From: Paenibacillus turpanensis
Lineage (GTDB): Bacteria; Bacillota; Bacilli; Paenibacillales; YIM-B00363
Direction: 5' to 3'
Length of the DNA stretch: 64,000 bases
Assembly (NCBI RefSeq): GCF_011421635.1
Contig: NZ_WTLI01000013.1
Span: 31,006-95,005, forward strand
The notes under the pieces are model-generated. The model ran no database searches. It worked only from the letters and a program-made list of their open reading frames with translations, and was not told where the DNA came from. Positions 25,945 through 38,078 of this stretch are shown here, piece by piece. Numbering within the stretch: position 1 is the stretch's first letter; each line of letters opens with the position of its first letter. The position numbers were made by a program, and so were the translations under genes.

Positions 25945-26700
25945 TTAGCTAGATTTCTTTTCTTGTACGCAGTCGATCAGACCAGCAATTATAAGACCTA
26001 AACTACATCCGCTTATGGAAGACACCACGAGCATACCCAATTGATTTCCGCTCGAAAAGAACGCAAATTTGATAGAAACCGTTACAAAAGTGACGGCAAA
26101 AACGACCGCCCAGTACAAAGATTTCCGCGTGCTGCTATGTGAATGGAGGTGTTCGTTCGGCTGCTTCGATTTAAATAAAAATACGAGTAGAATCAGTGCT
26201 TCTGCTGCAAGTCCCACAATGGATAGGGAGTATTGTAATAGTTTATATCCGGGGAGATCGGGAAGCACTCTTTGCTGCAGGATTGGGAATTGGGTTACAA
26301 AGCCGCCCGATTGATGGGTAAACGCGTCAATCCCAATATGGCTATAAAAGCCAAGCGTTACCGAGGTGAGAAATACCAGTGCTTCACGGAGTCCGCCGAT
26401 TTTCCAAGGTAAGATAAGGGCGTACGCCCTTCGATCAAGACCAAACACGGAGGGCAAGTTTCGGGCAAGCGGCCGTTTGATAAAGTAGTGAAATAAAAAA
26501 GCAAATAATATACTAAGTGGAATTGCCTGCAGGAAAAGCCCCTTCGTCGTATGCCCAATGCTTTGGTATGGCTCCAAGGCAATGAAATATTCAAAATCCG
26601 GCGACATACTGCCGAGAATAATTCCTGTTAAGCTGATCCAGCGGGGAAACAGCCTTTTCACCGGTGCGGCATAGAGCGGATGAGCAAATGTAAACGGCAT
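25945..26700 (-). CDS. DUF4184 family membrane protein
   Basis: MPFTFAHPLYAAPVKRLFPRW...GSMSPDFEYF is the typical DUF4184 N-terminus. Confidence 0.7.
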   Translation of the reverse strand: MPFTFAHPLYAAPVKRLFPRWISLTGIILGSMSPDFEYFIALEPYQSIGHTTKGLFLQAIPLSILFAFLFHYFIKRPLARNLPSVFGLDRRAYALILPWKIGGLREALVFLTSVTLGFYSHIGIDAFTHQSGGFVTQFPILQQRVLPDLPGYKLLQYSLSIVGLAAEALILLVFLFKSKQPNEHLHSHSSTRKSLYWAVVFAVTFVTVSIKFAFFSSGNQLGMLVVSSISGCSLGLIIAGLIDCVQEKKSS

Positions 26701-26857: not shown

Positions 26858-27745
26858 CTATTCAGGTATGTTCACAATGAACGAGACAAGAAAGACTTTT
26901 CCTTCACGCTGGAACTCCGCCCATATCTTATACTTCCCGCTCTTCGGGAAGTTCGCATCGAATTCAAGCTCCGGTCCAGTGCTGGCTTCGTCGTTCGGGT
27001 GGGTATGAATATACGAGGTAGAATCCTCACTCATGATGACAACATGCCCTTTGGACCCGATATAAAATTCAAGATCATGAATCGGCTTCTTCGTTTGCGC
27101 ATCCTCAAAACGGTACGTCAGCTGTACGGTTTCGCCTGCTTTTCGCTTATTAAATGACAATGAGATCTTCTTTCCGTCAACTACCTTCGTCAGCTCTTTA
27201 TCCGGTTGAATCGGCGGAGCCGTAGGGGCCTCTCCCTCGACATGCACCCATTGTTTATTGACGATGGCCGGCTTCCCTTTGCCCATTCCGGTCGGGACAA
27301 AGGTAGAAATCAGCTGGTAATCACCGCCCTTGGGAAAACGTGTCGTAATCATAAATTCGCCGTTTTCCTTCAGATGCGGATGGATATGCTGAAATACGGA
27401 CAAGTCCCGGCTAATGACGATCAGGTGCATTTTATCGACGTGGACGTCCTCGAACTCGGTAATCCTCTTTCCTTCCCCATTGTATGCGACGAGTGTTAGA
27501 TGCTCATCCCGTTTACTTTGCGGAGTACCGTGATCAAACGAAATTTTGAGGCTGACGTCATTTTCATCGTATTGCGTTTGCGAGCTTTTATTCGAAGCTT
27601 CACTGGCCTTGGCCTTCGCCTGCTCTGAAGCACTTTGTTCTTCCCTAGGAACCGGTGCCGCCGCAGGTTTGGAATCCGGTGCAGCCTGACAAGCGGTTAG
27701 CGTAAGCGCGATGCACATAACAACAATAGCCCACGTATTTTTCAA
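26858..27745 (-). CDS. Lipoprotein with two tandem ~110-aa beta-rich domains, each carrying an H-x-H-P motif (putative metal-binding)
   Basis: Lipobox LTACQA. Domain 1 ...FQHIHPHLKENGEF..., domain 2 ...YIHTHPNDEASTGPELEF..., both followed by GxYxLW-like strands. Confidence 0.65.
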   Translation of the reverse strand: MKNTWAIVVMCIALTLTACQAAPDSKPAAAPVPREEQSASEQAKAKASEASNKSSQTQYDENDVSLKISFDHGTPQSKRDEHLTLVAYNGEGKRITEFEDVHVDKMHLIVISRDLSVFQHIHPHLKENGEFMITTRFPKGGDYQLISTFVPTGMGKGKPAIVNKQWVHVEGEAPTAPPIQPDKELTKVVDGKKISLSFNKRKAGETVQLTYRFEDAQTKKPIHDLEFYIGSKGHVVIMSEDSTSYIHTHPNDEASTGPELEFDANFPKSGKYKIWAEFQREGKVFLVSFIVNIPE

Positions 27746-27764
27746 CGATCATCATCCTTTCGTT

Positions 27765-27877
27765 CAGTTACTCTTATTTTTTGAAAATATGCTAAGCAAA
27801 TAGGTTCTTAAAAAGGAGGAAAGTGTAAGGCCGATCGTCAGGTAAATAAACTGTAAAATGATTTGTACCCATTCCAT
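27765..27877 (-). CDS. Putative 36-aa hydrophobic peptide, translationally coupled (TGATG overlap) to the upstream gene
   Basis: MEWVQIILQFIYLTIGLTLSSFLRTYLLSIFSKNKSN. RBS GGAGGA 6 nt upstream. Confidence 0.3.
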
Positions 27878-28164
27878 CAGCTGTCCTCCTTTACCTTGCC
27901 CGACAGCTGCTGCCGCAGAAAATCGGGTACGTTTCTTTCCAAGGCCGAATTCACCCGTGCAAACAAATAGAGGAACACGAGAACAAAGATTAAAAACAAT
28001 CCAATAATCAAAATAGCAAGCACAATTCCAAGCGGCCCACCGGAAAGCGACCCCATGTAAATTGGGGCGTCACGGAAAAAGAGCATCACCAGCAGCTCAA
28101 AAAAGGCGGAAAACGCAAGTCCGATAAAGGAAACTTTAACGGTCTTGAGCCATATTGTTTTCAA
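27877..28164 (-). CDS. Small two-TM membrane protein
   Basis: RBS GAGAGGAGGGG then TTG start (LKTIWLKTVKVSFIGLAFSAFFELLVMLFF...). Confidence 0.5.
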   Translation of the reverse strand: MKTIWLKTVKVSFIGLAFSAFFELLVMLFFRDAPIYMGSLSGGPLGIVLAILIIGLFLIFVLVFLYLFARVNSALERNVPDFLRQQLSGKVKEDS

Positions 28165-28183
28165 ACGATCCCCTCCTCTCATG

Positions 28184-29461
28184 TTAGGAGGGCCCGCTAT
28201 CATGCACTGTCATTTGGCTGGAAGGTGCTTGTGGCGGTTTCTTCCGCCCTCTTCCAGCACGGCTTCTCTCTATGGAGCCAGGCCATATCGAAAGGAAAGC
28301 CATACCGACTAAGCCAACACTCAGCGTAATCAGAAATAAAAGAATGAGAGCTCCAAAAGCGTGAAAGAAAAAGACACCCCAGCCTGAAGAGATTTCAGGA
28401 TTAAAGATGTCAAAAGAGAAAACCGCTGAGCTTGCTGAGGAGTCAGAGGATGCGTTTGAAGCTTGTGAGGAGCTCTGCCCGGAACTGGTAGAATTATCTC
28501 TGCCGGAGGAGCTCGATGAACCCGATGAGCCGCTGCCGCTCATGGAGCCACCTCCGCCACTACCGCTCATGTCCATTCCACTCATGGAGCCACCTCCGCC
28601 CATGGAGCCCATACCTCCCATACCCATCATCATCATCATGCCACCCATCCCGCGCATTCCACCCATGCTCATGCCGCTCATGGAACCGCCTCCGCCGCTA
28701 CTGCCGCTCATGTCCATTCCGCGCATCGCGCCGCCGCCGCCGCTACCGCTCCTGTCCATTCCGCTCCTCGCGCCGCCTCCGCCGCTCCCGCCGCTCATGT
28801 CCCTCCCGCTCATCGCGCCGCCGCCGCCGCTACCGCTCCTGTCCATTCCGCTCCTCGCGCCGCCTCCGCCGCTCCCGCCGCTCATGTCCCTCCCGCTCAT
28901 CGCGCCGCCGCCGCCGCTACCGCTCCTGTCCATTCCGCTCCTCGCGCCGCCTCCGCCGCTCCCGCCGCTCATGTCCATTCCGCTCATGGAGCCACCGCCG
29001 CCACTACCGCTCATGTCCATTCCGCTCATGGAGCCGCCTCCGCCGCCACTGCCGCTCATGTCCATTCCGCGCATCGCGCCGCCGCCTCCGCCGCCGCTGC
29101 CGCTCATGTCCATTCCGCTCATCGCGCCGCCGCCGCCGCCGCCACTGCCGCTCATGTCCGTTCCGCTCATCGCGCCGCCGCCTCCGCCGCCGCTGCCGCT
29201 CATGTCCATTCCGCTCATCGCGCCGCCGCCTCCGCCGCTGTTAGACCCGCTGCTGTTCGAGGAGGAAGAACTGCCGCCGCCGCTTGAACTCTGCGTCGCG
29301 CCGCCCCCCGTTCCCATCCCAGGCAGTCCTACTGCTCCATTGGCAGATGACGATGCTGCCCCACCTTGTGGAAACAATAAAAAGAGCAGTAGATACAAGA
29401 ACAAAACGATAACAATGGCGCCAGCTGTATAGCCCGTTATTCGAAGCCATATGTTTTTCAA
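28184..29461 (-). CDS. Gly/Ser/Met-rich repeat membrane protein (N- and C-terminal TM helices flanking a ~330-aa low-complexity region with M-x-x-M-x-M motifs). Putative Cu(I)-binding.
   Basis: Repeats SGMDMSGSGGGGGGAM..., MGGMRGMGGMMMMMGMGGMGSMGGGG. The reverse strand carries the codon-consistent frame. Confidence 0.7.
   Translation of the reverse strand: MKNIWLRITGYTAGAIVIVLFLYLLLFLLFPQGGAASSSANGAVGLPGMGTGGGATQSSSGGGSSSSSNSSGSNSGGGGGAMSGMDMSGSGGGGGGAMSGTDMSGSGGGGGGAMSGMDMSGSGGGGGGAMRGMDMSGSGGGGGSMSGMDMSGSGGGGSMSGMDMSGGSGGGGARSGMDRSGSGGGGAMSGRDMSGGSGGGGARSGMDRSGSGGGGAMSGRDMSGGSGGGGARSGMDRSGSGGGGAMRGMDMSGSSGGGGSMSGMSMGGMRGMGGMMMMMGMGGMGSMGGGGSMSGMDMSGSGGGGSMSGSGSSGSSSSSGRDNSTSSGQSSSQASNASSDSSASSAVFSFDIFNPEISSGWGVFFFHAFGALILLFLITLSVGLVGMAFLSIWPGSIERSRAGRGRKKPPQAPSSQMTVHDSGPS
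28741..29001. repeat. Three perfect in-frame 87-bp tandem repeats, embedded in a ~700-bp array of degenerate 48-51-bp repeats (about 28540-29230)
   Basis: Unit gctaccgctcctgtccattccgctcctcgcgccgcctccgccgctcccgccgctcatgtccctcccgctcatcgcgccgccgccgcc begins at 28741, 28828 and 28915. Encodes GGSGGGGARSGMDRSGSGGGGAMSGRDMS x3. Confidence 0.85.
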
Positions 29462-29595
29462 CCGTGTTTCCCCCCTCTCTACACCCCATCATAATCCCCA
29501 CTTATGAATTACTTGTTGAGACAATCGTTTTTCCAAAAAATCCACAGCTGCTCCACGCCTTTCTGTTACATTCCAAATTACGGAGGTGAAATAAC

Positions 29596-31512
29596 ATGGT
29601 GCGCAAATGTGTGAACCGATTTCTTGATAAAATGGAAGCCATAAAAAGAAAAGTGACGCGATGGTTCGGTATTTTCCTCCTCATCACAGTCACCTTCATC
29701 GTTATTATTTTACTGCTGATTTTAACTTGGGCACTTCGTCAGTTAGCGCCTCCTTCCGCCTACTCGGCTCAGCCCCCTGCAGCTGCAGCAACTCAGATCG
29801 ACCGGCAGGTACAGTCCGGACAAAACAACGAAGGCCAGTCCGCTCCGCAGACCCGAACTCATCCGCCAACAAGCATGTCTGGCAATGAGACAGAGTTAGA
29901 CGGCTCTACAGCTGAGGCCAATAGTCAAGTAGAGAAGCCTCTCCCCGAAGATTTGCTTGGCACCGCCCAAAAGTTAAGTCAGGATTCTACGGCGGATCTC
30001 CAGGATTCGCCGCTGCTTGGAGAGCGCACGCTTGCCGAAAGAACCATAACAGACGACGGGACCATCGAGTTTCGGCTTTCCGCCGCACCGGAGACCGTTA
30101 ACATCAGTCCTACGCTCCCCTTTGAAGCATGGACCTATAACGGCATGCTGCCCGGCCCTATTATCCGGGTAACAGAAGGAGAACGCGTCCGCATTGTTTT
30201 TGAAAATCACGTTCCCGGCATCGGCACAGCCGTCCATTGGCATGGCATTCCAACTCGCAATGAGGTTGACGGCGTTCCTGAGCTTACCCAACCCAGCGTA
30301 AATACCGGCGAATCGTACGTATATGAATTTACTGCCTCTCCCTCCGGAACGTATTCCTACCATGCTCACGGGGCCAACAAAGGTGCCGAACAGCTCGATC
30401 GAGGGTTATATGGACCGTTTATTATCGATCCCGCTGAACCGACATGGCTTCCGAAAGCAAGTGTGGAATGGATTCTGAGCGTCGATGAAATGCAGATTCC
30501 CGGAGCCGGATCCGCCCCGCCGGCGAGCGACGGCAACCTGATGGATCAAGAAATGATGCAGCGGATGATGCCCCGTGCAATTCTCGGCTCCGCCGACGTG
30601 TACAATGTGTTTATAATAAACGGTAAGCGAAGCCCGCAGCAGCCGCTGGTGGCCCGTGCGGGAGAATGGATCCGCATTCGACTGCTGAATTTCGGGTACC
30701 AAAAGCACAGGTTCACGATTGACGGGCTGAAGCTGTTCGCCACGCACATGGACGGAAGAGCGCTGCCCGCAGCACAGCCGGTTGAAATCCTGGAGATTGC
30801 CCCATATGAGCGGCTTGATGCCTACATTTACGGCATGACCCCAGGAACCTACACATTAAAGGATATCGACCCGGGCCACAGCGAGTCCGGTATGAAAGCA
30901 AAGATCCGGCTTCAACCGCCGAAAGGGCCGAACCAGACCGAGGACATGGATAATTTGAAAAATACACCGTCCGCTACCGGGAGTCCTCTCCCCATTCCCC
31001 GTATCAAAACAGCGGATATCCCTGAAGGAGCGCCGCGTTACCAGCAGGTTGCCGCCGGAGTACCCGGCCCCGATAATACCACGTACGACCGTATTTATAA
31101 TATGACGCTTGGCATGACCATGGATGACGGGCAAATGGCTTGGGCGATTAACGGCCGGAGCTGGGACTCCTTTGAGGATACAGAGCCTTATCTTCTGAAA
31201 AAAGGAGAAAAAGTACGTATTAACCTTACGAACATGTCTCCGGAAAGTCATCCGATGCATCTTCACGGACACTTGTTTCATATCGTCGAAATCAACGGAC
31301 AGCCGATTGCTGAGCCTTGGCTGCTCAAGGATACGATCAATCTTCGTCCGATGGACCGTATTTCCATTGCCTTTACAGCCGACAACCCCGGAGACTGGTT
31401 CTTCCACTGCCATCAAGAGCTGCATGCCGACCACGGCTTGAAAACCTATTTCACCTACGAAAAGATAGAAACCCGGAATAAAGACGCGGGCGGGACGCCA
31501 GCAGATCGCTGA
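29596..31512 (+). CDS. Multicopper oxidase (CueO/CopA-like), N-terminally membrane-anchored, with a Met-rich segment
   Basis: RBS GGAGGTGA. Copper-site motifs HWHG, HAHG, HPMHLHGH and HCHQELHADHGL, all four present. Met-rich insert LMDQEMMQRMMP. N-terminal TM FGIFLLITVTFIVIILLLILTWAL. Confidence 0.9.
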   Translation: MVRKCVNRFLDKMEAIKRKVTRWFGIFLLITVTFIVIILLLILTWALRQLAPPSAYSAQPPAAAATQIDRQVQSGQNNEGQSAPQTRTHPPTSMSGNETELDGSTAEANSQVEKPLPEDLLGTAQKLSQDSTADLQDSPLLGERTLAERTITDDGTIEFRLSAAPETVNISPTLPFEAWTYNGMLPGPIIRVTEGERVRIVFENHVPGIGTAVHWHGIPTRNEVDGVPELTQPSVNTGESYVYEFTASPSGTYSYHAHGANKGAEQLDRGLYGPFIIDPAEPTWLPKASVEWILSVDEMQIPGAGSAPPASDGNLMDQEMMQRMMPRAILGSADVYNVFIINGKRSPQQPLVARAGEWIRIRLLNFGYQKHRFTIDGLKLFATHMDGRALPAAQPVEILEIAPYERLDAYIYGMTPGTYTLKDIDPGHSESGMKAKIRLQPPKGPNQTEDMDNLKNTPSATGSPLPIPRIKTADIPEGAPRYQQVAAGVPGPDNTTYDRIYNMTLGMTMDDGQMAWAINGRSWDSFEDTEPYLLKKGEKVRINLTNMSPESHPMHLHGHLFHIVEINGQPIAEPWLLKDTINLRPMDRISIAFTADNPGDWFFHCHQELHADHGLKTYFTYEKIETRNKDAGGTPADR

Positions 31513-31545
31513 ATGGTGTCAATAGCTGCACCGGCGGAAATACTA

Positions 31546-31579
31546 AAAAAAGGAAAGGGGCGTTTACCCTTTCCTTTTA
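31546..31579. terminator. Bidirectional terminator between the convergent MCO and encapsulin genes
   Basis: aaaggaaaggg-gcgtttac-cctttcctttt hairpin with A and T tracts. Confidence 0.6.
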
Positions 31580-32425
31580 CGCTTTGACGAGAGTGCACAC
31601 TGCCGTGGGACGCTTAATGCGGGGAACTAAGCATTCATATACGCGGTAATAGTAGTTCATATTATCATCATTTAAAAAAGCAACGTCGACGTCCTGGGCA
31701 ATGGCGAGATCGACATTTTGCCCGCCTGTCGCAACCAGTACCCCTAGCCCGTTCTTGATCTGCGAGGATTGGTAAATGCCTTCCGTAAACAAATCCCGAA
31801 TATGCTCAATCTCCAGCAAATTTGAGCCCGGCTGCACTTGATGAAGCTGTGCGTACGCATCGGGCGACAAGGCCAGTGCGAACGGTCCGTTATGGCCGTT
31901 TTTCAAGAGACGGTTGCGCGCGTGAACAATATCTTGAAACCCTCGCCCTGCCTCAGACCAATTTCCGCATGGCTGCACCTCTCTGCCGTCCACATTCATC
32001 AAGCCTGGAATGTTGAGCGGAGGATGGCCGTTAAAAATCAACTCATCCTCAAGCAGTGCCACATCCGCCGTAGCGCTTACCGCCGCCGAATAGTCGAGCG
32101 GATTGCCCGTTTCTCTGGCCTGCTCGATATCTCTCCAATACAGCACAAAATCCTTATACAAGATCGGAATGGTCAACGTTTCCTTTTCATCCGGCTTAGC
32201 AACGCTAATCTTTTCCCCGTGGAGACTAATGTTTCCTGGCTCCGGCTCCAAATATACCGGGTTGGAGACAGATTGGGCCCCAGCGCCGATCGGCCCATAA
32301 ATGTCAAGAAACTTCGCGACAACAATATGCTCCCTCGCCGTATCGACTACCGTATCGATCAAGCGATCCCATTGCTTTGCCGTAAGCGGCCCGCGGGAGG
32401 AGACTCGTTTCCGTTTATTGCTCAT
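31577..32425 (-). CDS. Family 1 encapsulin nanocompartment shell protein (HK97 fold, linocin M18-like)
   Basis: 282 aa. RBS AAGGGGGAA. Aligns along its full length with the T. maritima encapsulin (PLTAKQWDRLID..., ...ALLEDELIFNGHP..., ...LVATGGQNVDLAIAQDVDV..., C-terminal ...YYRVYECLVPRIKRPTAVCTLV). Confidence 0.85.
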   Translation of the reverse strand: MSNKRKRVSSRGPLTAKQWDRLIDTVVDTAREHIVVAKFLDIYGPIGAGAQSVSNPVYLEPEPGNISLHGEKISVAKPDEKETLTIPILYKDFVLYWRDIEQARETGNPLDYSAAVSATADVALLEDELIFNGHPPLNIPGLMNVDGREVQPCGNWSEAGRGFQDIVHARNRLLKNGHNGPFALALSPDAYAQLHQVQPGSNLLEIEHIRDLFTEGIYQSSQIKNGLGVLVATGGQNVDLAIAQDVDVAFLNDDNMNYYYRVYECLVPRIKRPTAVCTLVKA

Positions 32426-32457
32426 CGGTGTTCCCCCTTATCTAACCAAAGATGATG

Positions 32458-32682
32458 TCACGGATCATTTTCCGCCGAATCCGCGGCTTCCGCCGGTTGT
32501 TCCCTAGGTTTATTCGATTTCTTTTTTTCGGAAAAGAAGTACATAAGAACGACGAAATAGAAGGCGGAAATATCAAACGATGTCTTGTAGTTAAAAATCT
32601 GATTAATGATGGGCAGCTTATACGTGAAAAACCCGAGTAGGATGCTTAAACTCAGGAGGATAAACTTCTTAACCGTTAGCAT
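32458..32682 (-). CDS. Small membrane protein (74 aa) with polar C-terminal tail
   Basis: Two hydrophobic segments. Weak RBS. Position and strand are consistent with the operon. Confidence 0.4.
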   Translation of the reverse strand: MLTVKKFILLSLSILLGFFTYKLPIINQIFNYKTSFDISAFYFVVLMYFFSEKKKSNKPREQPAEAADSAENDP

Positions 32683-32703
32683 CGGATCCGGCCCAGCTCG
32701 CCA

Positions 32704-33066
32704 TCATCGATGTGTGGTGCGGCGTCCTCTTCTTGGGCCGCGATCGTCATCCTCGTCGTCATAATCGTCGTCCTCGAATAAACGCACATCATGCCGTTCG
32801 AAGTATTTAATCGTAATGCCGATCAACCCGACAATCAGCCCGATCACTGCCAAGATAATTAACGTGATAAATATAAAATTAAATATGGCAATAACCGCGC
32901 CCGCCCCGGAGAACGCTGACCCGCTGCTCGAGCTGCTTGAACCGCCTCCCGATACGCCGCTATAACCAACAAACCCTACGAATAGAAATTCGATGAATCC
33001 GAAAATCAAAATGGCTACGACCGAATATACGGTAAGCTTCAAAAATGGTCTCTGCTGTCGATTCAT
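32704..33066 (-). CDS. Membrane protein with Gly/Ser linker and poly-acidic C-terminal tail (EDDDYDDEDDD)
   Basis: RBS GGAGGGAG, two TM segments, acidic tail suggests cation binding. Confidence 0.55.
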   Translation of the reverse strand: MNRQQRPFLKLTVYSVVAILIFGFIEFLFVGFVGYSGVSGGGSSSSSSGSAFSGAGAVIAIFNFIFITLIILAVIGLIVGLIGITIKYFERHDVRLFEDDDYDDEDDDRGPRRGRRTTHR

Positions 33067-33145
33067 AGCTCTCCCTCCTTTGCTACCATCATAGCCGACA
33101 CTTATGGAGGGACAATGGAGAAGCCATTTTTATAACAAAATCGGG

Positions 33146-33583
33146 CTAAAATCGGTCTGGGAAATATTTCTGAATCGCGCGTACGAATAGCATTGCGATT
33201 CCGGCTAGCAGCGTAAGAAGAAAGAGAACGGTCAGACTGTAGAATAAGAAGTCGATCACCTGGACAAATAAGACGTTAGCCAATCCCAGTCCTCCGCGAA
33301 AGCCCATCATGGTGTGAGTTGTGAATGCCTGGATAAAAACCAAGTCCATAATGCCAAAAAACACAATGCCGACCAGTAGATAAATGACCCACGTTAACCA
33401 GCTACCGAGCCCCCAACCGCCGCTGTCTTTTGTATTGCGTTCTTGTCTTGGTCCCGACACACCCGATACCTTACCCCATAACGCCTGAATACCGCCAATA
33501 AACAGTGCTGCCAGCACCAAAAAGATGAGAATGATAAAGAAGATACTTAAAGCTGCGCTGATCAGGTGCCCGTTTGCGTTCAT
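33146..33583 (-). CDS. Four-TM membrane protein
   Basis: Start ATG in ATGA overlap with the upstream gene stop. MNANGHLISAALSIFFIILIF... Confidence 0.55.
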   Translation of the reverse strand: MNANGHLISAALSIFFIILIFLVLAALFIGGIQALWGKVSGVSGPRQERNTKDSGGWGLGSWLTWVIYLLVGIVFFGIMDLVFIQAFTTHTMMGFRGGLGLANVLFVQVIDFLFYSLTVLFLLTLLAGIAMLFVRAIQKYFPDRF

Positions 33584-33993
33584 TTGCGAAGACCTCCTTT
33601 TCCTCTCCCCTTCCGATCCGTTCGTGGCAGCCAAAGTATGACCCATACAATACAGGTCCCCGTAAACACTGCCGTCACAACAACAAGAAGCAGTGACAGG
33701 ACGTAGTTAATCGGGTCAAGTACCGGGTTCGCCATCCCGGACATGTGCATATGCATATCCATCCCCGTTAGCTCCTCGCACATCCGCATGCAAACCTCGA
33801 TCATAGGGGTAAGGGTGTGAAATGAATTCATCATAGTGTGACCGAACCACATCATCATCGCCATCGACAACATATCCTTCATCGACGGCTGCGCACGGTA
33901 TTCCGGCTGCACGAAGACCAACACCGCCGCCCCTGTATACAGCAGCACTATCGCCAGCATCCAATGCCCGAAGCTTGACCGCTTCGGCTTCAT
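33580..33993 (-). CDS. Met/His-rich membrane protein
   Basis: ATGA-coupled start. MKDMLSMAMMMWFGHTMMNSFHTLTPMIEVCMRMCEELTGMDMHMHMSGMANP. Confidence 0.55.
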   Translation of the reverse strand: MKPKRSSFGHWMLAIVLLYTGAAVLVFVQPEYRAQPSMKDMLSMAMMMWFGHTMMNSFHTLTPMIEVCMRMCEELTGMDMHMHMSGMANPVLDPINYVLSLLLVVVTAVFTGTCIVWVILWLPRTDRKGRGKGGLRK

Positions 33994-34304
33994 TTTGCCG
34001 CACCCAACCGTTTGCGTAAGCAACAGCCAACGATAAGGCTAAGAGGCAGAAGCCCAAACGATACGAGTGTGACACTCCAAAACAAGGTGCTCCAACCACC
34101 CGCAGGGCCGGACATGCCCATCAGCTGCCGCATCATGGAAGACATCAGCGTGCCGGATTGACAGGCTTGCATCATGCTGGTCATGTACTGCATCGCCTGT
34201 TCAGGGGGGAGTACCGGATTCACAAGCGATAACAAGACGGAGGCGGCAAGAAAGGCAAATAAAAAAGAAAGCGACCGGACGAATAGAACGAACCAATGAT
34301 TCAT
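33990..34304 (-). CDS. Met-rich membrane protein
   Basis: MQYMTSMMQACQSGTLMSSMMRQLMGMSGPAGG between TM segments. Confidence 0.55.
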   Translation of the reverse strand: MNHWFVLFVRSLSFLFAFLAASVLLSLVNPVLPPEQAMQYMTSMMQACQSGTLMSSMMRQLMGMSGPAGGWSTLFWSVTLVSFGLLPLSLIVGCCLRKRLGAAK

Positions 34305-34346
34305 TCCAACGGAATCACCTCCTCTCCTTTAGATAAAAGTAGGGGC

Positions 34347-34829
34347 TTATTGTTTTCTACCTCTGCGTTTTGGCTTAACCAAAGGCAGACGATACAAGTG
34401 GCGCTTTTGCACCATATGCCAGACGATAACCGCCATCAGTACAAATGCGAGCAGCTCATGAAGCATAAAGCTTACAACCGCCACGCGGAAGGGAACCGCC
34501 GGCATAAACCAAAGAATCACTCCTGTTATCACTAACACGAAGGTGATCGCAAAATTAAACCCTGCAAAGCCGCTGCTGCCAATCGGCAGCCATTTTCGGA
34601 CCATCGGCTTCTCTGTGATCAATTGCTTTACCTCGTAGATCGCAACCCAAGCAACCCAAATCACCCACACAAAGCCCACCAACCGGTGCACGGTATCCAT
34701 TAGCGGGAAGTGATTCCCCATCATCCAGCTAAACCTTCCTCCAATAATCGAAAACCCGCTGAGCAGCAGGAAAAAGGTTAGCACACCCCATATCCAATGC
34801 GCGATGAAATCAAACGGGATTGGTCTCAA
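34347..34829 (-). CDS. Cytochrome b561 family protein (PF01292-like di-heme membrane cytochrome)
   Basis: TTG start inside a TTGA overlap, preceded by RBS AAAGGAGGA. Conserved His in TM helices (IAHWIWGV, TVHRLVGF, MLHELLAFVLMAVIVWHM) as in E. coli CybB. Confidence 0.7.
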   Translation of the reverse strand: MRPIPFDFIAHWIWGVLTFFLLLSGFSIIGGRFSWMMGNHFPLMDTVHRLVGFVWVIWVAWVAIYEVKQLITEKPMVRKWLPIGSSGFAGFNFAITFVLVITGVILWFMPAVPFRVAVVSFMLHELLAFVLMAVIVWHMVQKRHLYRLPLVKPKRRGRKQ

Positions 34830-35800
34830 GATTCTTCCTCCTTTCCGGCTTCCTCTTTTGTGATTTCCTGCTTCTTTTGTGATCGGCTCTTTTGCAGCTG
34901 CTTCTTCGCCTTCGAAGATTTGGTAATCCCCCGATCTTTGATCACGCTTACCACATACGCAATGATACATATGAATAGCACGAGCAGCAGGATCATGAGG
35001 ATTATTTTAAAGGCAATCACCATAGTCTCGTAGAAGCTTCCTTGAGCCTTGGGGCCACCGGTGTAATCAACACTGACGTTGGACCGCATGGAGCCCATAT
35101 TCATACCGTTCATGGCCCCGCTGCCGGAGACGGAGCTCTTGTTCGTATTCATGCCCGACATATCAGATGAACCGCTGCCCATGTTCATCTGAGAGCCGAC
35201 TATATTTTGTGCGTCGCCCATATCCATAGGAGAGCCGGAAGAACTCTCCATCCCTCCGCTCGTTGTCCCTGTGCCTTCCATGGCATTCATTCCGCGCCCC
35301 TGCTTGCCCGCTTGCCCGCTTCCGGTATCCTCATTCGTGTTCCGATTGCCGTCCACACCGTTATTCTGGTTGTTTGCGTTTCCCTGCGCTTCCATTCCGC
35401 CCGGTGCATTCTCCACGCTTTGCTGCAATAAATCAATCGCCTGCCGTACAAGCCGGAGCGCTTCCAGCTGCTGCTGCTTCCAAGTCTTCTGCTCTTGGCT
35501 TGCTTCCGAGCTGCCAGAATTCTGACCGGAGGCTGCCGCATCCCCTTCCGACGCTTCTGCCCGATTTGATTGTTCATGGGCCGAATCGGGCTGCTCCTCT
35601 TTTGTCATCCCTTCCATCGAGCCTTGCTGCTGCCCGGCCTCAGTTCCCTCCTGCTTCGGCTCTGTCTGCTGCCTTGAGGCCTGAGCGCTGTCCTGCATCT
35701 CTGACATTCCTTGTTGTTCGGCAGATACAGAACCCCCCAGGAAAAGCAGCAAGCAAACGGAGCACCACAATCCTTTTAGCAGCTGCTTCCGCTTCATCAT
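34826..35800 (-). CDS. Secreted Gln/Gly/Ser/Met-rich low-complexity protein with C-terminal TM anchor
   Basis: Signal peptide MMKRKQLLKGLWCSVCLLLFLGGSVSA. ...SPMDMGDAQNIVGSQMNMGSGSSDMSGMNTNK...GAMNGMNMGSMRS. C-terminal TM plus Lys-rich tail. Confidence 0.6.
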   Translation of the reverse strand: MMKRKQLLKGLWCSVCLLLFLGGSVSAEQQGMSEMQDSAQASRQQTEPKQEGTEAGQQQGSMEGMTKEEQPDSAHEQSNRAEASEGDAAASGQNSGSSEASQEQKTWKQQQLEALRLVRQAIDLLQQSVENAPGGMEAQGNANNQNNGVDGNRNTNEDTGSGQAGKQGRGMNAMEGTGTTSGGMESSSGSPMDMGDAQNIVGSQMNMGSGSSDMSGMNTNKSSVSGSGAMNGMNMGSMRSNVSVDYTGGPKAQGSFYETMVIAFKIILMILLLVLFICIIAYVVSVIKDRGITKSSKAKKQLQKSRSQKKQEITKEEAGKEEES

Positions 35801-36732
35801 TCCCCCTCCTTCCGCTTATCTAATGGATTTGACATTGGGAGTGTAAAAGTAAATCGGCAGCCTCCTGCCTGATCACATTCGACAAAGACATGACCGCCTT
35901 GTAGCATGATCAAATGCTTTACAATACTCAGCCCAAGGCCGCTTCGGCCAGATCGTGTCCCCTGATGCAGCTGAACGCTCCTTTCAAACACACGATCCAT
36001 TTGTTCCTCCGGAATGCCCGGACCTGTGTCGCGCACCGTTGTCACAGCGTGCTGTTTTATCCTATCGACGCGAACCTCGACGGTGACCGAACCGCCATCC
36101 GGCGTATGCCGAATTGCGTTCTGAAGTAAATTGTGCAGCACCTGACGGATACGCTCCCGATCACCAAGCACATAGATCCCGTACGAGGCAGGCACCAAAT
36201 ATCGGACCGAAACTCTTTTTTTGGCTCCAGATAGCCTTTCGTCCACGGCAACATCCCTTACGATCTCGGTAAGATCAAAGGAATGGCACGAAACACGAAA
36301 CCACGGGATTTGTTCATCGGAAGCCGTTTCGATATCTTCAACCAACCGAGAAACATGCATCGCTTTTTCATAAATGATCTGCAGCTCCTGTTCCGTCATA
36401 GGAATCAAATGGTCGTTTAACGCTTCGAGACGGGTACAAAGCACATGAACGACATTGCGCAGCTCGTGGGAAACTTCCTCATAAAAATGCACCTTTTCCC
36501 GATTGCTCACCTGATGCATCAGCTCTAAACGCCTATCGTAATACCCGCTTACGGCATAAGAGGACAATAATGCGAAAACAAGACTGGCCACAAGGCATTC
36601 CGGTACCCTAACATAAGAAAAAGAAGTCCACGATCCGGCCATTGTGTTATGCTCCATCACAAAGCATAGCACCGTGGAACAGATAGACACCCCAAATATC
36701 GCAACCGTCATTTTGTACTTGGGTTTAAGCAT
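35797..36732 (-). CDS. Sensor histidine kinase (HisKA plus HATPase_c), two N-terminal TM segments
   Basis: H-box SHELRNVVHV, N/G boxes NLLQNAIRHT, DTGPGI, GLGLSIV. Confidence 0.85.
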   Translation of the reverse strand: MLKPKYKMTVAIFGVSICSTVLCFVMEHNTMAGSWTSFSYVRVPECLVASLVFALLSSYAVSGYYDRRLELMHQVSNREKVHFYEEVSHELRNVVHVLCTRLEALNDHLIPMTEQELQIIYEKAMHVSRLVEDIETASDEQIPWFRVSCHSFDLTEIVRDVAVDERLSGAKKRVSVRYLVPASYGIYVLGDRERIRQVLHNLLQNAIRHTPDGGSVTVEVRVDRIKQHAVTTVRDTGPGIPEEQMDRVFERSVQLHQGTRSGRSGLGLSIVKHLIMLQGGHVFVECDQAGGCRFTFTLPMSNPLDKRKEGE

Positions 36733-37421
36733 TGCAGCCTCTGAAATTGATACCCTTCTCGAAACACGGTAACGATATATTGAGGGTTTTTAGGATCTTC
36801 TTCGATTTTGCTTCTTAAATTTTTGATATGGCTGTCCAGGGTTCTATCCATGCCTTCGTAAAAATGACCGTGTACCCGTTCGATCAACTGCTGTCTCGAA
36901 AGAATCTGCCCCGCATGTTCCATGAAAACCCGCAGCAGCTTAAATTCAATCGGCGTAACCTCTACCTCGTGGCCTCCCACCCATACGCGTTTTTGTTTCT
37001 TTTCAATGCGGATATCGCCGACCATGATATTTTCCAGCTTAGGTTCCGGCATCCAAACCCGCCGCAGCATCGCCTTTATACGGGCAACCAGCTCCCGTGG
37101 TCGAAACGGCTTTGTGATGTAATCATCCGCTCCGGCCCCAAGACCTCTTAGAATATCCTCCTCCTGATTGCGACCTGAAAGGATAATGATCGGGGTGTTG
37201 GAACGGGATCGAATATCTTTGCATATCTCGATACCGCATGCATCCGGAAGACGAATGTCAAGCAATACCAATATTGGCTGTACTCGGTCAAATGCCGCCG
37301 TTGCCTCTGCTCCGTTATAAGCAATCTCCACTTTGTATCCTTCACCCTTTATATATGTCTTAATAGTTTGGGCAAGCAGTCGCTCGTCTTCCACTAGCAA
37401 GATCGTATTGGGCGTGCTCAT
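36708..37421 (-). CDS. OmpR-family response regulator
   Basis: ILLVEDERLL...LLDIRLPD receiver, C-terminal winged helix (TVFREGYQF). Overlaps the HK gene. Confidence 0.9.
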   Translation of the reverse strand: MSTPNTILLVEDERLLAQTIKTYIKGEGYKVEIAYNGAEATAAFDRVQPILVLLDIRLPDACGIEICKDIRSRSNTPIIILSGRNQEEDILRGLGAGADDYITKPFRPRELVARIKAMLRRVWMPEPKLENIMVGDIRIEKKQKRVWVGGHEVEVTPIEFKLLRVFMEHAGQILSRQQLIERVHGHFYEGMDRTLDSHIKNLRSKIEEDPKNPQYIVTVFREGYQFQRLQCLNPSTK

Positions 37422-37453
37422 TATAACCCTCCTCTAGGTGTATTGAACTTGTC

Positions 37454-37478
37454 GTTCCGTGGTGCAAGAATAGGAACG
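37454..37478. promoter_or_regulatory. Inverted repeat CGTTCC-N13-GGAACG upstream of the response-regulator gene
   Basis: Lies in the 236-bp divergent intergenic region between the two-component operon and the cupredoxin-like gene. Confidence 0.3.
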
Positions 37479-37657
37479 CAAGATTAAAGTGAAATCCCCC
37501 TTTCATCCCGATTCTATGACTTCCTTCCAACTCTTGAATTTATTTGTGCTATACCTATGAGACAAATATTTTGATTATTCTCCATCACTTCTCCACAACT
37601 AGCTGGTATTGTTTTCCACAGGTTCGTCAGGAATTCTTGTAAACTATTTTCGGAGGA

Positions 37658-38032
37658 GTGTGCAAAATGTTCATGAAAAAAGCCAAAACGTTGATTCTGC
37701 CTGCTATGCTGATGCTATTGTTTTCGCTGCTTGCCGGTTGCTCCAGCGAGCCTGCCAAGCCGATTGATATCGTCATTACGGCCAAAGACATGATGTTTAC
37801 GCCGGACCGCATTACCGTCGATAAGGGAAGCTCTATCAAGCTGACCTTCCGCAACCAAGAAGGTGTGGTTAACGATTTAATGATGAAAGGAACCGATGTC
37901 ATGATACAAGATGTGGGGCCGAATCAGGAGAAATCAACCACATTTACCGCTGACCGCGCGGGGACCTTTACGATCATGACCTCCGCCCCAGGCATGGAGA
38001 ATATGACAGCGGATTTTATTGTCAAAGAGTAA
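37658..38032 (+). CDS. Cupredoxin-like lipoprotein lacking canonical Cys/His copper ligands, Met-rich
   Basis: RBS GGAGGAG. Lipobox LLAGCSS. Beta-sandwich pattern ...IVITAKDMMFTPDRITVDKGSSIKLTFRNQ...TFTADRAGTFTIMTSAPGMENM.... No His, and no Cys beyond the lipobox. Confidence 0.6.
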   Translation: MCKMFMKKAKTLILPAMLMLLFSLLAGCSSEPAKPIDIVITAKDMMFTPDRITVDKGSSIKLTFRNQEGVVNDLMMKGTDVMIQDVGPNQEKSTTFTADRAGTFTIMTSAPGMENMTADFIVKE

Positions 38033-38045
38033 GACCTTCAGACAC

Positions 38046-38078
38046 AAAAAACGGGGGCTCCCCTGAGCCCCCTCTTAA
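38046..38078. terminator. Bidirectional terminator
   Basis: aaaaaacgggggctc-ccctg-agcccccTCTT hairpin. Minus-strand reading is followed by TTTTTT. Confidence 0.5.

Follow-up and report, generated by a model that had tools for sequence, protein, structure and literature searches.

A conserved gene cluster of Bacillales joins a Family 1 encapsulin without classical cargo to a membrane-anchored multicopper oxidase and methionine-rich envelope proteins

Introduction

Family 1 encapsulins are defined by a shell protein together with a cargo protein that carries a targeting peptide, and their known roles are in iron storage and in peroxide, nitric-oxide or sulfur chemistry. The survey of encapsulins published in 2021 distinguished six cargo types and 90 unassigned "Minor" systems and did not mention copper (PMC8346489); the genera described below are not listed in the part of its supplement that was accessible. 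In this work, we describe a gene cluster at positions 26858-38032 of a 64-kb stretch of the Paenibacillus turpanensis genome (contig NZ_WTLI01000013.1, positions 31,006 to 95,005; hereafter, the window), where a Family 1 encapsulin is encoded together with a membrane-anchored multicopper oxidase (MCO), a cytochrome b, methionine-rich (Met-rich) envelope proteins and a series of small membrane proteins. All results are computational, and the sequence covered consists of the 64-kb window and 5-20 kb at each related locus.

Two kinds of described encapsulin systems come closest to this locus. The IMEF-type T=4 encapsulins of Quasibacillus thermotolerans (6NJ8) and Bacillus methanolicus (9FY6) have a shell of the same family, length and HK97 fold, and their shell gene likewise ends an operon. 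The sole encapsulin-MCO pairing that was found in the literature is that of the anammox bacterium Candidatus Scalindua rubra, in which an MCO gene lies downstream of the encapsulin gene (PMC6934571); this system is listed as "Minor" in the 2021 survey (PMC8346489). The Scalindua MCO is a 324-residue, two-domain, nitrite-reductase-like protein that was proposed to be a luminal cargo (PMC6934571). The two loci share a Family 1 shell gene, an MCO gene directly after it and the lack of a canonical targeting peptide on the MCO, whereas the MCO described here has 638 residues, three domains and an N-in membrane anchor, is predicted to face outward and is accompanied by Met-rich membrane proteins encoded in the operon. 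A search of the literature returned no paper that ties encapsulins to copper resistance, Met-rich proteins, cupredoxins or cytochrome b561.

With respect to metal handling, Met-rich motifs of the MxxMxM type are typical of CopA, PcoA, CopB, CusF and CTR1. The locus resembles the CopA/PcoA/CueO systems in its three-domain MCO with all copper ligands, the short Met-rich loops of this enzyme, its Met-rich outer proteins and an OmpR-type two-component system. It differs from them in that the MCO has a membrane anchor, no clear Tat signal and Leu as axial ligand, in that CopB, CopC and CopD are missing, in its Gram-positive host, in a kinase that lacks a periplasmic sensor domain and in the coupling with an encapsulin and a cytochrome b. 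In yeast, reductive metal uptake employs the cytochrome b reductase Fre1 with Ctr1, a transporter carrying Met motifs, and the MCO Fet3 with Ftr1. By analogy only, the transmembrane b-type cytochrome, the small membrane proteins with Met-rich ectodomains and the membrane-anchored MCO of the locus recall this pathway, which in yeast involves no protein shell.

A preliminary description of this DNA presented the region as a cluster of Met-rich extracytoplasmic proteins around an MCO. Such a cluster is real; its conserved core, however, also includes a cytoplasmic Family 1 encapsulin that is syntenic in seven lineages, and this gene, which had gone unreported, changes the reading of the whole cluster. 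The region is a conserved unit that joins a retooled encapsulin without classical cargo to an outward-facing oxidase, Met-rich proteins and a transmembrane electron carrier, with common regulation apparent.

Results

A small clade of encapsulins apart from the classical ones

The gene at 31577-32425 on the minus strand encodes a 282-residue Family 1 shell protein of the IMEF/T=4 lineage, which scores 215 bits with the Linocin_M18 model PF04454, whose cut-off is 24.3, and 260 bits with the encap_f1 model NF041155, whose cut-off is 100. In a PDB search, two T=4 shells came out closest, 9FY6 and 6NJ8 (E of about 1e-88 to 1e-90, with 9e-90 for 9FY6), and a structure-based alignment gives 47-50% identity to the solved shells. 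The AlphaFold2 monomer model (predicted local distance difference test, pLDDT, 63.5) has the HK97 fold and matches the T=4 shells with Foldseek TM scores of 0.67-0.70. Assembly into a closed icosahedral shell is predicted from the 47-50% identity to shells known to assemble.

Database searching identified a small clade of encapsulins with 67-72% identity to the window protein, comprising those of Halobacillus naozhouensis, Tuberibacillus sp. (Marseille-P3662), Aquibacillus kalidii, two Radiobacillus species and three metagenome lineages. The next tier follows after a gap and consists of hundreds of classical encapsulins at no more than 57% identity, the window shell being 46-57% identical to its classical relatives. 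The hosts of both the clade and the IMEF-type encapsulins are spore-forming Bacillales. The encapsulin reading frame is intact in nine lineages, with a ratio of nonsynonymous to synonymous substitution rates (dN/dS) of 0.05-0.14; for the encapsulin and two of the small membrane proteins encoded next to it, sE and sF, the ratio is 0.05-0.25 wherever dS is unsaturated. The encapsulin is, with fairly high confidence, a functional member of the unit.

Loss of the classical cargo and remodelling of the shell

As a control for the classical arrangement, a genome scan with the encapsulin gave 26 relatives at 46-54% identity. In 25 of these, the open reading frame (ORF) just upstream ends in (L/F)T(V/I)GSL(K/I), the 26th being truncated by a contig end, and the four upstream ORFs that were tested proved to be IMEF cargo proteins (PF24309, E about 1e-54 to 1e-58). 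No ORF of the 64-kb window has a TVGSL-type C-terminus. A looser scan for targeting motifs in the window and the related loci L027, L030 and L031 found no match in a real gene, and searching the window and the loci L027, L030, L032 and L033 with a profile of the 25 cargo proteins gave no match (E values of 5 or more at best), while the positive controls scored about 1e-95.

The shell itself has also changed, as the alignment of nine clade members with 111 classical sequences demonstrates. The register was checked on the classical consensus MDKLRKYPDS, which has Asp at position 9, and on GRxFxD, which holds Arg34 and Asp38. The Gly-Arg pair of the LVGRRFID motif, present in 111 of 111 classical sequences, is replaced in all nine clade members by Ala or Val followed by Ala, Ser, Asp or Gly. 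The Arg of this pair corresponds to Arg34 of the K. pneumoniae shell, which mutagenesis has found to be important for binding of the cargo peptide (PMC10960027). The equivalent of Asp38 (K. pneumoniae numbering) is retained in the clade, and the Arg or Lys found in classical shells at window position 32 has become Asp or Glu. In the Q. thermotolerans shell, Asp9 is a residue of the 3-fold pore (PMC6668986); its equivalent is Asp or Glu in 107 of the 111 classical sequences and, among the eight readable clade sequences, Arg in six and Gly or Gln in two. The equivalents of Q. thermotolerans Asp71 and Glu251/252 are still acidic, and that of the 5-fold pore residue Asn200 is Lys in five of the nine clade members. 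Furthermore, a new Cys153 is found in nine of nine members and Cys227 in seven of nine, and in six members the N-terminus is extended by a basic arm (+3 to +5) that is predicted to be disordered in the AlphaFold2 model.

The classical cargo system is lost: there is no classical cargo gene at the locus, and the binding Arg is gone, so that two features which define Family 1 operons are missing from a system whose shell is of Family 1 by sequence and fold. The clade differs from the IMEF-type encapsulins in the loss of the IMEF cargo with its TVGSL peptide, of the Gly-Arg pair of the cargo site and of the acidic residue at the position of Asp9, in the gain of new conserved Cys residues and, in most members, of a basic N-terminal arm, in having small membrane proteins encoded upstream, and in the linkage of the shell to an MCO and a two-component system. 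The encapsulin could be taken for a decaying bystander that has lost its cargo and sits by chance in a copper island, as the missing cargo gene and the lost cargo-binding Arg would allow. This is very improbable, given the intact frame in nine lineages at 67-72% identity under purifying selection (dN/dS 0.05-0.14), the constant position of the gene at the operon end and the regulator box that precedes the sE-sF-encapsulin genes (see below). Moreover, the substitutions are conserved and specific to the clade, and they therefore do not look like random decay.

The same changes bear on the possibility that the system handles iron. Here, the IMEF-derived shell would still store iron, the outer MCO would be a ferroxidase comparable to Fet3 or EfeO, and the cytochrome b would serve as a ferric reductase or electron conduit. 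The nearest solved shells, those of Q. thermotolerans and B. methanolicus, are indeed T=4 iron compartments. Iron handling is, however, weakened by the loss of the IMEF ferroxidase cargo and of the residue that binds its targeting peptide, and by the replacement, mostly by Arg, of the acidic 3-fold pore residue that is thought to funnel Fe2+. Further evidence on this point comes from the oxidase and is considered with it.

Conserved gene order across Bacillales lineages

The gene set at 26858-38032 was derived from the ORF listing with Pfam and NCBIfam, and the genomic context was compared for six clade members beside the window. The related loci are L027-L029, L030, L033, L032 (A. kalidii), L037 (Radiobacillus deserti) and L038 (H. 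naozhouensis, partial). A core of 12 genes recurs in at least six other Bacillales lineages. Besides the encapsulin and a CopA-like MCO, it encodes a diheme cytochrome b, six or seven small membrane proteins, Met-rich anchored proteins and a Gly/Met-repeat protein. Wherever the DNA reaches, the order is invariant: Met-rich anchored protein, cytochrome b, the small membrane proteins sA, sB, sC, sD, sE and sF, and the encapsulin, whose gene in every case either closes the operon or stands immediately ahead of the MCO gene.

In P. turpanensis, the minus-strand operon consists of ten genes: an OmpR/PhoB-family response regulator (36708-37421), a histidine kinase (35797-36732), the Met-rich anchored protein, here called Met324 (34826-35800), the cytochrome b (34347-34829, with a TTG start), sA (33990-34304), sB (33580-33993), an sC-sD fusion (33146-33583), sE (32704-33066), sF (32458-32682) and the encapsulin. 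From the regulator to the encapsulin, neighbouring genes overlap or are at most 79 nucleotides apart. Three starts were corrected on the basis of ATGA or TTGA overlaps and Shine-Dalgarno sequences, namely those of the cytochrome b (34829), sB (33993) and sC-sD (33583); for sC-sD the overlap is ATGA, and the corrected sB start agrees with the 137-residue database entry P0196. The operon is flanked on one side by a cupredoxin-fold lipoprotein gene (37658-38032, plus strand) and on the other by the genes for the MCO (29596-31512, plus strand), the Gly/Met-repeat protein (28184-29461, minus strand) and the two-helix membrane protein tm108 (27877-28203, minus strand), the latter two belonging to the core. 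Between the convergent encapsulin and MCO genes lies a strong hairpin terminator (31548-31578, minus strand), whose 12-bp stem, followed by a run of T, begins at the encapsulin stop codon. A GC-rich hairpin (38053-38072, minus strand) forms the right-hand end of the cluster, and Rfam returned no RNA family between 26 and 39 kb. According to topology prediction, nearly all products are membrane or extracytoplasmic proteins, and only the encapsulin and the regulator are soluble and cytoplasmic.

In A. kalidii and R. deserti, the whole 12-gene core lies on one strand. The MCO gene follows the encapsulin gene in four lineages: it is convergent with it in the window and L027 and co-directional in A. 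kalidii (72-nucleotide gap) and R. deserti (33-nucleotide gap). In the latter two, the Gly/Met-repeat protein and tm108 come after the MCO, and in L027 the gene for the Gly/Met-repeat protein is found at the contig end. The two-component system and the divergent cupredoxin gene are also present in L027, and neither occurs at the A. kalidii or R. deserti locus. MCO homologues with at least 48% identity come only from L028, A. kalidii and R. deserti, all of which hold this encapsulin clade, and the small proteins have fewer than ten homologues among billions of sequences. The sC gene is fused to sD in the window and to sB in L030, L032, L033, L037 and L038, and these differing fusions suggest that the proteins act in one complex.

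Several additional genes were noted at the related loci. A GH68 (levansucrase-like) gene borders the Halobacillus-type loci (L030 3854-5302, L038 15338-16978), where it takes the place occupied in other lineages by the MCO. In A. kalidii and R. deserti, a soluble ORF of 40-49 residues ends 2 nucleotides before the encapsulin start (L032 9849-9998, L037 10590-10712) and has the conserved pattern ...KSG(L/I)(I/V)YEENWNV.LK.LE.K.L.ERRK; it belongs to the variants that have no two-component system at the locus, has no homologue in the window and may act as an adaptor or as a mini-cargo. The two species further agree in the stretch that follows their tm108 homologue (L032 14368-20843, L037 14838-20351), with genes for two pyridine-nucleotide disulfide oxidoreductases, a GT2 glycosyltransferase, DUF2064, a choline-kinase-like gene and a solute-binding protein, which may indicate a link to the system or mere relatedness of the hosts. 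About 6 kb upstream of the A. kalidii operon, L032 1-455 encodes a PCYCGC-domain protein with a putative metal-binding motif.

The multicopper oxidase and the cupredoxin

The MCO has 638 residues and matches Cu-oxidase_3, Cu-oxidase_2 and Cu-oxidase of Pfam (E from 1e-12 to 4e-37). All four copper-ligand motifs are present, namely H214WH, H256AH, HPMH555LH (HxxHxH at 552-557) and H604CH with H610. The type-1 axial ligand is Leu, and runs of Met are found at 320-329 and 507-518. An N-terminal transmembrane (TM) helix spans residues 20-52. The membrane-anchored MCO with a Met-rich segment that had been proposed from the sequence is therefore borne out by domains, ligands, helix and Met runs. Location inside the shell as a luminal cargo, as proposed for Scalindua, was considered and set aside: the N-terminus has seven Lys or Arg residues, and these are followed by a long TM helix and about 100 linker residues. 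From the topology of this N-terminus, an outward-facing enzyme is predicted.

Among NCBIfam models, copper_res_A (TIGR01480) is the best match of the MCO, with 183.3 bits. The neighbourhoods of more distant homologues were also inspected. An outgroup MCO at 43% identity is surrounded by genes for SCO1/SenC, DUF305, DUF3105, CtaG, a second MCO and a P-type ATPase. Another, at 33% identity, has as its neighbours a repressor of the BlaI/CopY type, a two-component system, a further MCO and DsbD/thioredoxin genes. The copper-binding protein CopM has a DUF305 domain.

The cupredoxin-fold lipoprotein matches PF13473 (Cupredoxin_1, E=7e-11) and contains 10.5% Met. It has no His, and its only Cys residues are at position 2 and in the lipobox, with none in the mature domain, so that it lacks the type-1 (blue) copper ligand set His-Cys-His-Met. 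In alignment with nitrosocyanin, M107/T108 stand opposite the ligand Cys, and the Met residues of the ligand region, which replace the type-1 ligands, are conserved in L027. These features agree with the earlier description of a cupredoxin-fold lipoprotein with Met residues and no canonical Cys/His copper ligands.

For the iron reading introduced above, it may be added that yeast Fet3, a ferroxidase, is among the PDB matches of the MCO, and that Cupredoxin_1 is also the fold of the EfeO N-terminal domain. Conversely, Met-rich motifs bind soft metals and not iron, and the outgroup MCO lies in a copper-type neighbourhood. Taken with the losses from the shell, these points leave an iron system improbable. 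The MCO might instead belong to a surface laccase or Mn-oxidase module that oxidizes Mn(II) or organic compounds at the surface of cells or spores, with the repeat proteins as matrix and the encapsulin as an accessory. A Leu axial type-1 ligand is found in high-potential laccases, the JGI resource labels some distant MCO homologues as manganese oxidase, and every host is a spore-forming member of Bacillales. However, the best family match is CopA, spore-coat genes and a context of the sigma-K/sigma-E type are absent, the promoters belong to the two-component-system type, and the Met/His/Cys ectodomains would be left unexplained. Such a module is accordingly quite improbable.

Cytochrome b and the Met-rich proteins

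The cytochrome b is a 160-residue protein with four TM helices, of the diheme FdnI/HyaC type. It matches PF01292 with 30.4 bits, barely above the Pfam cut-off of 30.1. Its His residues, one each in TM1 and TM2 and two in TM4 at a distance of 14 residues, are conserved in those homologues whose called protein spans them. The four helices and the His pattern are those of the cytochrome b of FdnI/HyaC systems, which differ from this locus in having a formate dehydrogenase or hydrogenase as partner; here, the neighbours are Met-rich proteins.

The Met content of five cluster proteins is 6.8-13.1%, compared with 3.0% in 40 long ORFs of the window. The Gly/Met-repeat protein (11.3% Met, 32% Gly) has an N-terminal anchor and about 340 extracytoplasmic residues of low-complexity MSGMDMSG repeats, and it ends in a TM helix followed by a basic tail. 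It contains nine MxxMxM motifs and is encoded in part by a 45-bp repeat present in 12.8 copies at 28670-29240. In L027 and L032, the gene next to the MCO codes for a homologue (E=7e-34), and in L037 for an equivalent Met-rich protein of 332 residues. Two long antisense ORFs, rich in Pro or Arg, arise from the Gly-rich repeat on the plus strand of the window (28407-29432 and 28516-29244) and are artefacts; similarly, an antisense frame had been called as a gene at L027 11450-11638, where the real gene is that of the Gly/Met-repeat protein on the opposite strand. Met324 (6.8% Met) consists of a signal peptide, an acidic, Met-rich, disordered ectodomain, a C-terminal TM helix and a Lys-rich tail. 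Similar proteins are encoded at the same position in L027, L032 and L033 (BLASTP E from 1e-14 to 1e-19), and counterparts in L037 and L038 were recognized by position and inspection of the sequence.

The small proteins sA and sB carry the remaining Met-rich ectodomains. The two-TM protein sA (104 residues, 9.6% Met) has a Met-rich outer loop of 40 residues with one conserved Cys, and its homologues in L027, L030 and L032 are 43-51% identical. The outer loop of sB (137 residues, two TM helices, 13.1% Met) has 59 residues, is rich in Met and His and contains CxxxC in six of the seven lineages examined; besides itself, five clear relatives (E of at most 1e-7) were found among 1.84 billion representatives. 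The other small proteins are not rich in Met. The sC-sD fusion (145 residues) has four TM helices, and in the relatives the homologue of its C-terminal half, sD, has a gene of its own. sE (120 residues, two TM helices) has a cytoplasmic tail with a poly-Asp stretch that ends, in the alignment of its homologues, in RRxRR(T/S)(T/S)H(R/K). Four homologues of sE were found among 5.8 billion proteins (dN/dS 0.05-0.25), and an alignment scan of JGI metagenomes gave no match. sD and sE are paralogous two-TM hairpins (hhalign probability 96%). An orphan sE paralogue is encoded at L038 10001-10351, about 7 kb upstream of the main operon of H. naozhouensis (start 17400), and lacks the conserved C-terminal RRSxHR. 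sF is a hydrophobic hairpin of 74 residues with 61-67% identity to its homologues in L027, L030 and L032 (dN/dS 0.16); a core of about 30 residues (LGFFTYKLPIINQIFNYKTSFD) is almost invariant and is better conserved than the shell itself. The tm108 protein has two hydrophobic segments. Its A. kalidii homologue (41% identity, E=3e-21) is encoded after the Gly/Met-repeat protein, a position taken in R. deserti by the gene for a similar two-TM protein of 86 residues. As a possible sE paralogue tm108 was rejected, the profile comparison not being significant (probability 15%).

The outermost gene on the left (26858-27745, minus strand) encodes a lipoprotein (lipobox LTAC) with two YtkA-like beta domains, each with an H-x-H-P motif (HIHP120, HTHP247). 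Its two halves align at E=4e-7, and the Pfam match to YtkA is weak (E=0.002, below the cut-off). A PDB search gave no sequence match, and the AlphaFold2 model obtained without an alignment is poor (pLDDT 46). There is no regulatory box upstream of the gene and no homologue at the Aquibacillus or Radiobacillus loci; its membership is doubtful, because both the box and a homologue in the two single-strand operons are missing. This lipoprotein is thus peripheral to the system, and its membership is uncertain.

Most of the composition that had been proposed for the region holds on closer analysis: the Gly/Met-rich TM protein with MxxMxM repeats, the lipoprotein with a duplicated H-x-H-P domain, the cytochrome b561, with its four conserved His and a Pfam score just above the cut-off, and the enrichment in Met. 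At least four small Met-rich proteins had been announced; among the small proteins, only those of 104 and 137 residues are Met-rich, and those of 108, 74, 120 and 145 residues contain 0.8-3.7% Met.

A system for defence against oxidants or hypochlorite would also employ Met-rich proteins, with the Met ectodomains as sacrificial sinks, the cytochrome b as a supplier of repair electrons by analogy with MsrQ, and the encapsulin as a shield around a redox reaction. Several long, disordered, Met-rich surface proteins and a quinone-linked cytochrome b encoded in the same operon speak for it, and encapsulins often serve against oxidative stress (PMC8346489). Against it stand the absence of MsrP, MsrA/B, peroxidase and DyP genes from every locus, the assignment of the cytochrome b to the FdnI/HyaC and not the MsrQ family, and the MCO, the Met-substituted cupredoxin and the CxxxC/His loop, all of which indicate metal binding. 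We consider oxidative defence as improbable as iron handling.

The two-component system and its predicted binding site

The response regulator (Response_reg, Trans_reg_C) is 58% identical to that of L027. The kinase (HisKA, HATPase_c) has two TM helices and no periplasmic sensor domain; its outer loop of 12 residues is of the intramembrane-sensing type, and it probably senses through a membrane partner. While an OmpR-family two-component system had been correctly predicted, its assignment to the CusRS/CopRS type does not hold: the heavy-metal models TIGR01386 (81 bits; cut-off 293) and TIGR01387 (145 bits; cut-off 279) score far below their cut-offs, and many other models rank higher. The best NCBIfam matches of the kinase are PnpS, PhoR, BaeS and WalK, and not CusS; PhoR, MtrA and WalK outrank the heavy-metal models.

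The spacers between the regulator and cupredoxin genes of the window and L027 share an identical block of 23 nucleotides, TTATTCTCCATCACTTCTCCACA, although the proteins are only 54-58% identical. The block holds a direct repeat whose half-sites are spaced by 11 bp, the spacing to be expected of a regulator of the OmpR/PhoB type. This direct-repeat box, TCCAT-N6-TCCA, precedes both the cupredoxin gene and the sE-sF-encapsulin genes. In the 64-kb window, TGGAG-N6-TGGAG has two sites, against 0.09 expected, and none of 100 shuffles reached two; both sites lie inside the cluster. The first, TCCATCACTTCTCCA (37581-37595, plus strand), is part of the 23-nucleotide block and lies 63-77 nucleotides before the cupredoxin start codon. 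The second, TCCATTGTCCCTCCA (33105-33119, minus strand), is 39-53 nucleotides before the sE start and covers the -35 region of a putative internal sE-sF-encapsulin promoter with TATGAT as its -10 element. Both have the same orientation to the downstream gene. A degenerate version with two mismatches, TCCACAGCTGCTCCA (29540-29554, plus strand), is located 42-56 nucleotides 5' of the MCO start codon and matches, in position, orientation and its 11-nucleotide distance from a TAnnnT hexamer, an exact box 36-50 nucleotides before the MCO start in L027. L027 also has an exact box before the cupredoxin gene and one with a single mismatch 41-55 nucleotides before sE, and L030 has a one-mismatch box 42-56 nucleotides before sE. 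In A. kalidii, which has no two-component system at the locus, no box was found upstream of the cluster genes.

In five promoters read by eye, a TAnnnT hexamer follows the box after 11 nucleotides, an arrangement consistent with a class II activator site. Few loci served both to derive the box and to check it; its distribution suggests that the cluster's own two-component system controls the cupredoxin gene, the MCO gene and the sE-sF-encapsulin sub-operon as one regulon. The encapsulin thus appears to be co-regulated with the cluster in the two lineages that carry the two-component system.

Other genes near the cluster

A P1B-type heavy-metal ATPase is encoded at 14092-16032 of the window (minus strand), 11 kb from the cluster and separated from it by unrelated genes. 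It has an SPC motif and no N-terminal HMA domain, matches TIGR01525 with 623 bits, and resembles PfeT/CzcP more than CopA. The left edge of the cluster is adjoined by a gene for a DUF4184 or Zn-dependent phospholipase-C-like membrane protein (25945-26700, minus strand), which shows no sign of membership.

Discussion

The locus looks like an undescribed type of encapsulin operon within Family 1 and also like a non-canonical copper-type island of Gram-positive bacteria. Its parts list is indeed non-canonical, as had been concluded from the sequence, and the genes for CopZ, CsoR and the CopA ATPase are, as stated then, missing from the cluster. Where that preliminary description went on to propose a copper/silver or oxidative-stress island, it is the link to copper or another soft metal that stands as the best available reading, for which speak the MCO model copper_res_A, the neighbours of the outgroup MCO and, as features compatible with Cu(I)/Ag(I) chemistry, the Met/His/CxxxC ectodomains and the Met-substituted cupredoxin. 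We tentatively regard the cluster as an envelope system for copper or soft metals coupled to a retooled encapsulin; both the metal and the role of the shell are inferred, and we give this reading slightly less than an even chance.

The proposed mechanism is as follows. The stimulus would be copper or another soft metal, such as Cu(I)/Ag(I), in the envelope. Outside the membrane, Cu(I) would be captured by the Met-rich disordered ectodomains, by the cupredoxin and by the loops of sA and sB with their Met, His and CxxxC; the MCO would oxidize it to Cu(II), and the cytochrome b would couple the redox chemistry at the outer face to the quinone pool. On the cytoplasmic side, the retooled encapsulin would act as a compartment for sequestration or docking, and the conserved cytoplasmic tails of sE and sF are candidate contacts of the shell, in place of the classical TVGSL cargo.

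For the shell, any specific role is unlikely to be the right one. In one such scenario, which we consider distinctly unlikely, the encapsulin would cooperate with the membrane instead of a soluble cargo, as the first of its kind to do so; it would be docked or loaded through the complex of small membrane proteins and would store or detoxify copper, another soft metal or anionic metal species. Delivery of the metal would fall to the Met-lined proteins together with the cytochrome b; as contacts and sites, the candidates are the poly-Asp/Arg-rich tail of sE, the core of sF, the Cys pair of the shell, its basic N-terminal arm and the Arg of the 3-fold pore.

A number of observations weigh against a soft-metal system with a dedicated shell. 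The score of the MCO is far below the TIGR01480 cut-off of 478.95 bits, and with a Leu axial ligand and no clear Tat signal, the enzyme might instead be a Mn oxidase, a laccase or a ferroxidase. The two-component system belongs to a generic type, and the cluster contains no copper-specific regulator, chaperone or exporter. In L030, it is a GH68-like gene and not the MCO that lies 3' of the encapsulin gene. As for the shell, its pore and cargo-binding residues were mapped by sequence register and not on coordinates, a closed shell cannot easily bind the tails of membrane proteins at its luminal site, and a cargo with a targeting signal of a new type could be encoded elsewhere in the genome. The route by which metal would enter the encapsulin, or by which the shell would dock at the membrane, is speculation.

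The clade has dropped both the cargo and the residue that binds it, and yet purifying selection maintains the shell within an operon of metal-type envelope proteins. If the functional link is true, encapsulin biology reaches into processes coupled to the membrane, probably those of copper, and the system would offer a new way of loading or docking a protein shell, which is of interest for engineering, as well as a Gram-positive copper route that does without CopZ, CopA and CsoR. Should the shell store a soft metal, it would be the first metal-storage encapsulin for a metal other than iron. The compact 12-gene operon of Aquibacillus and Radiobacillus and the predicted regulator box make the system testable.

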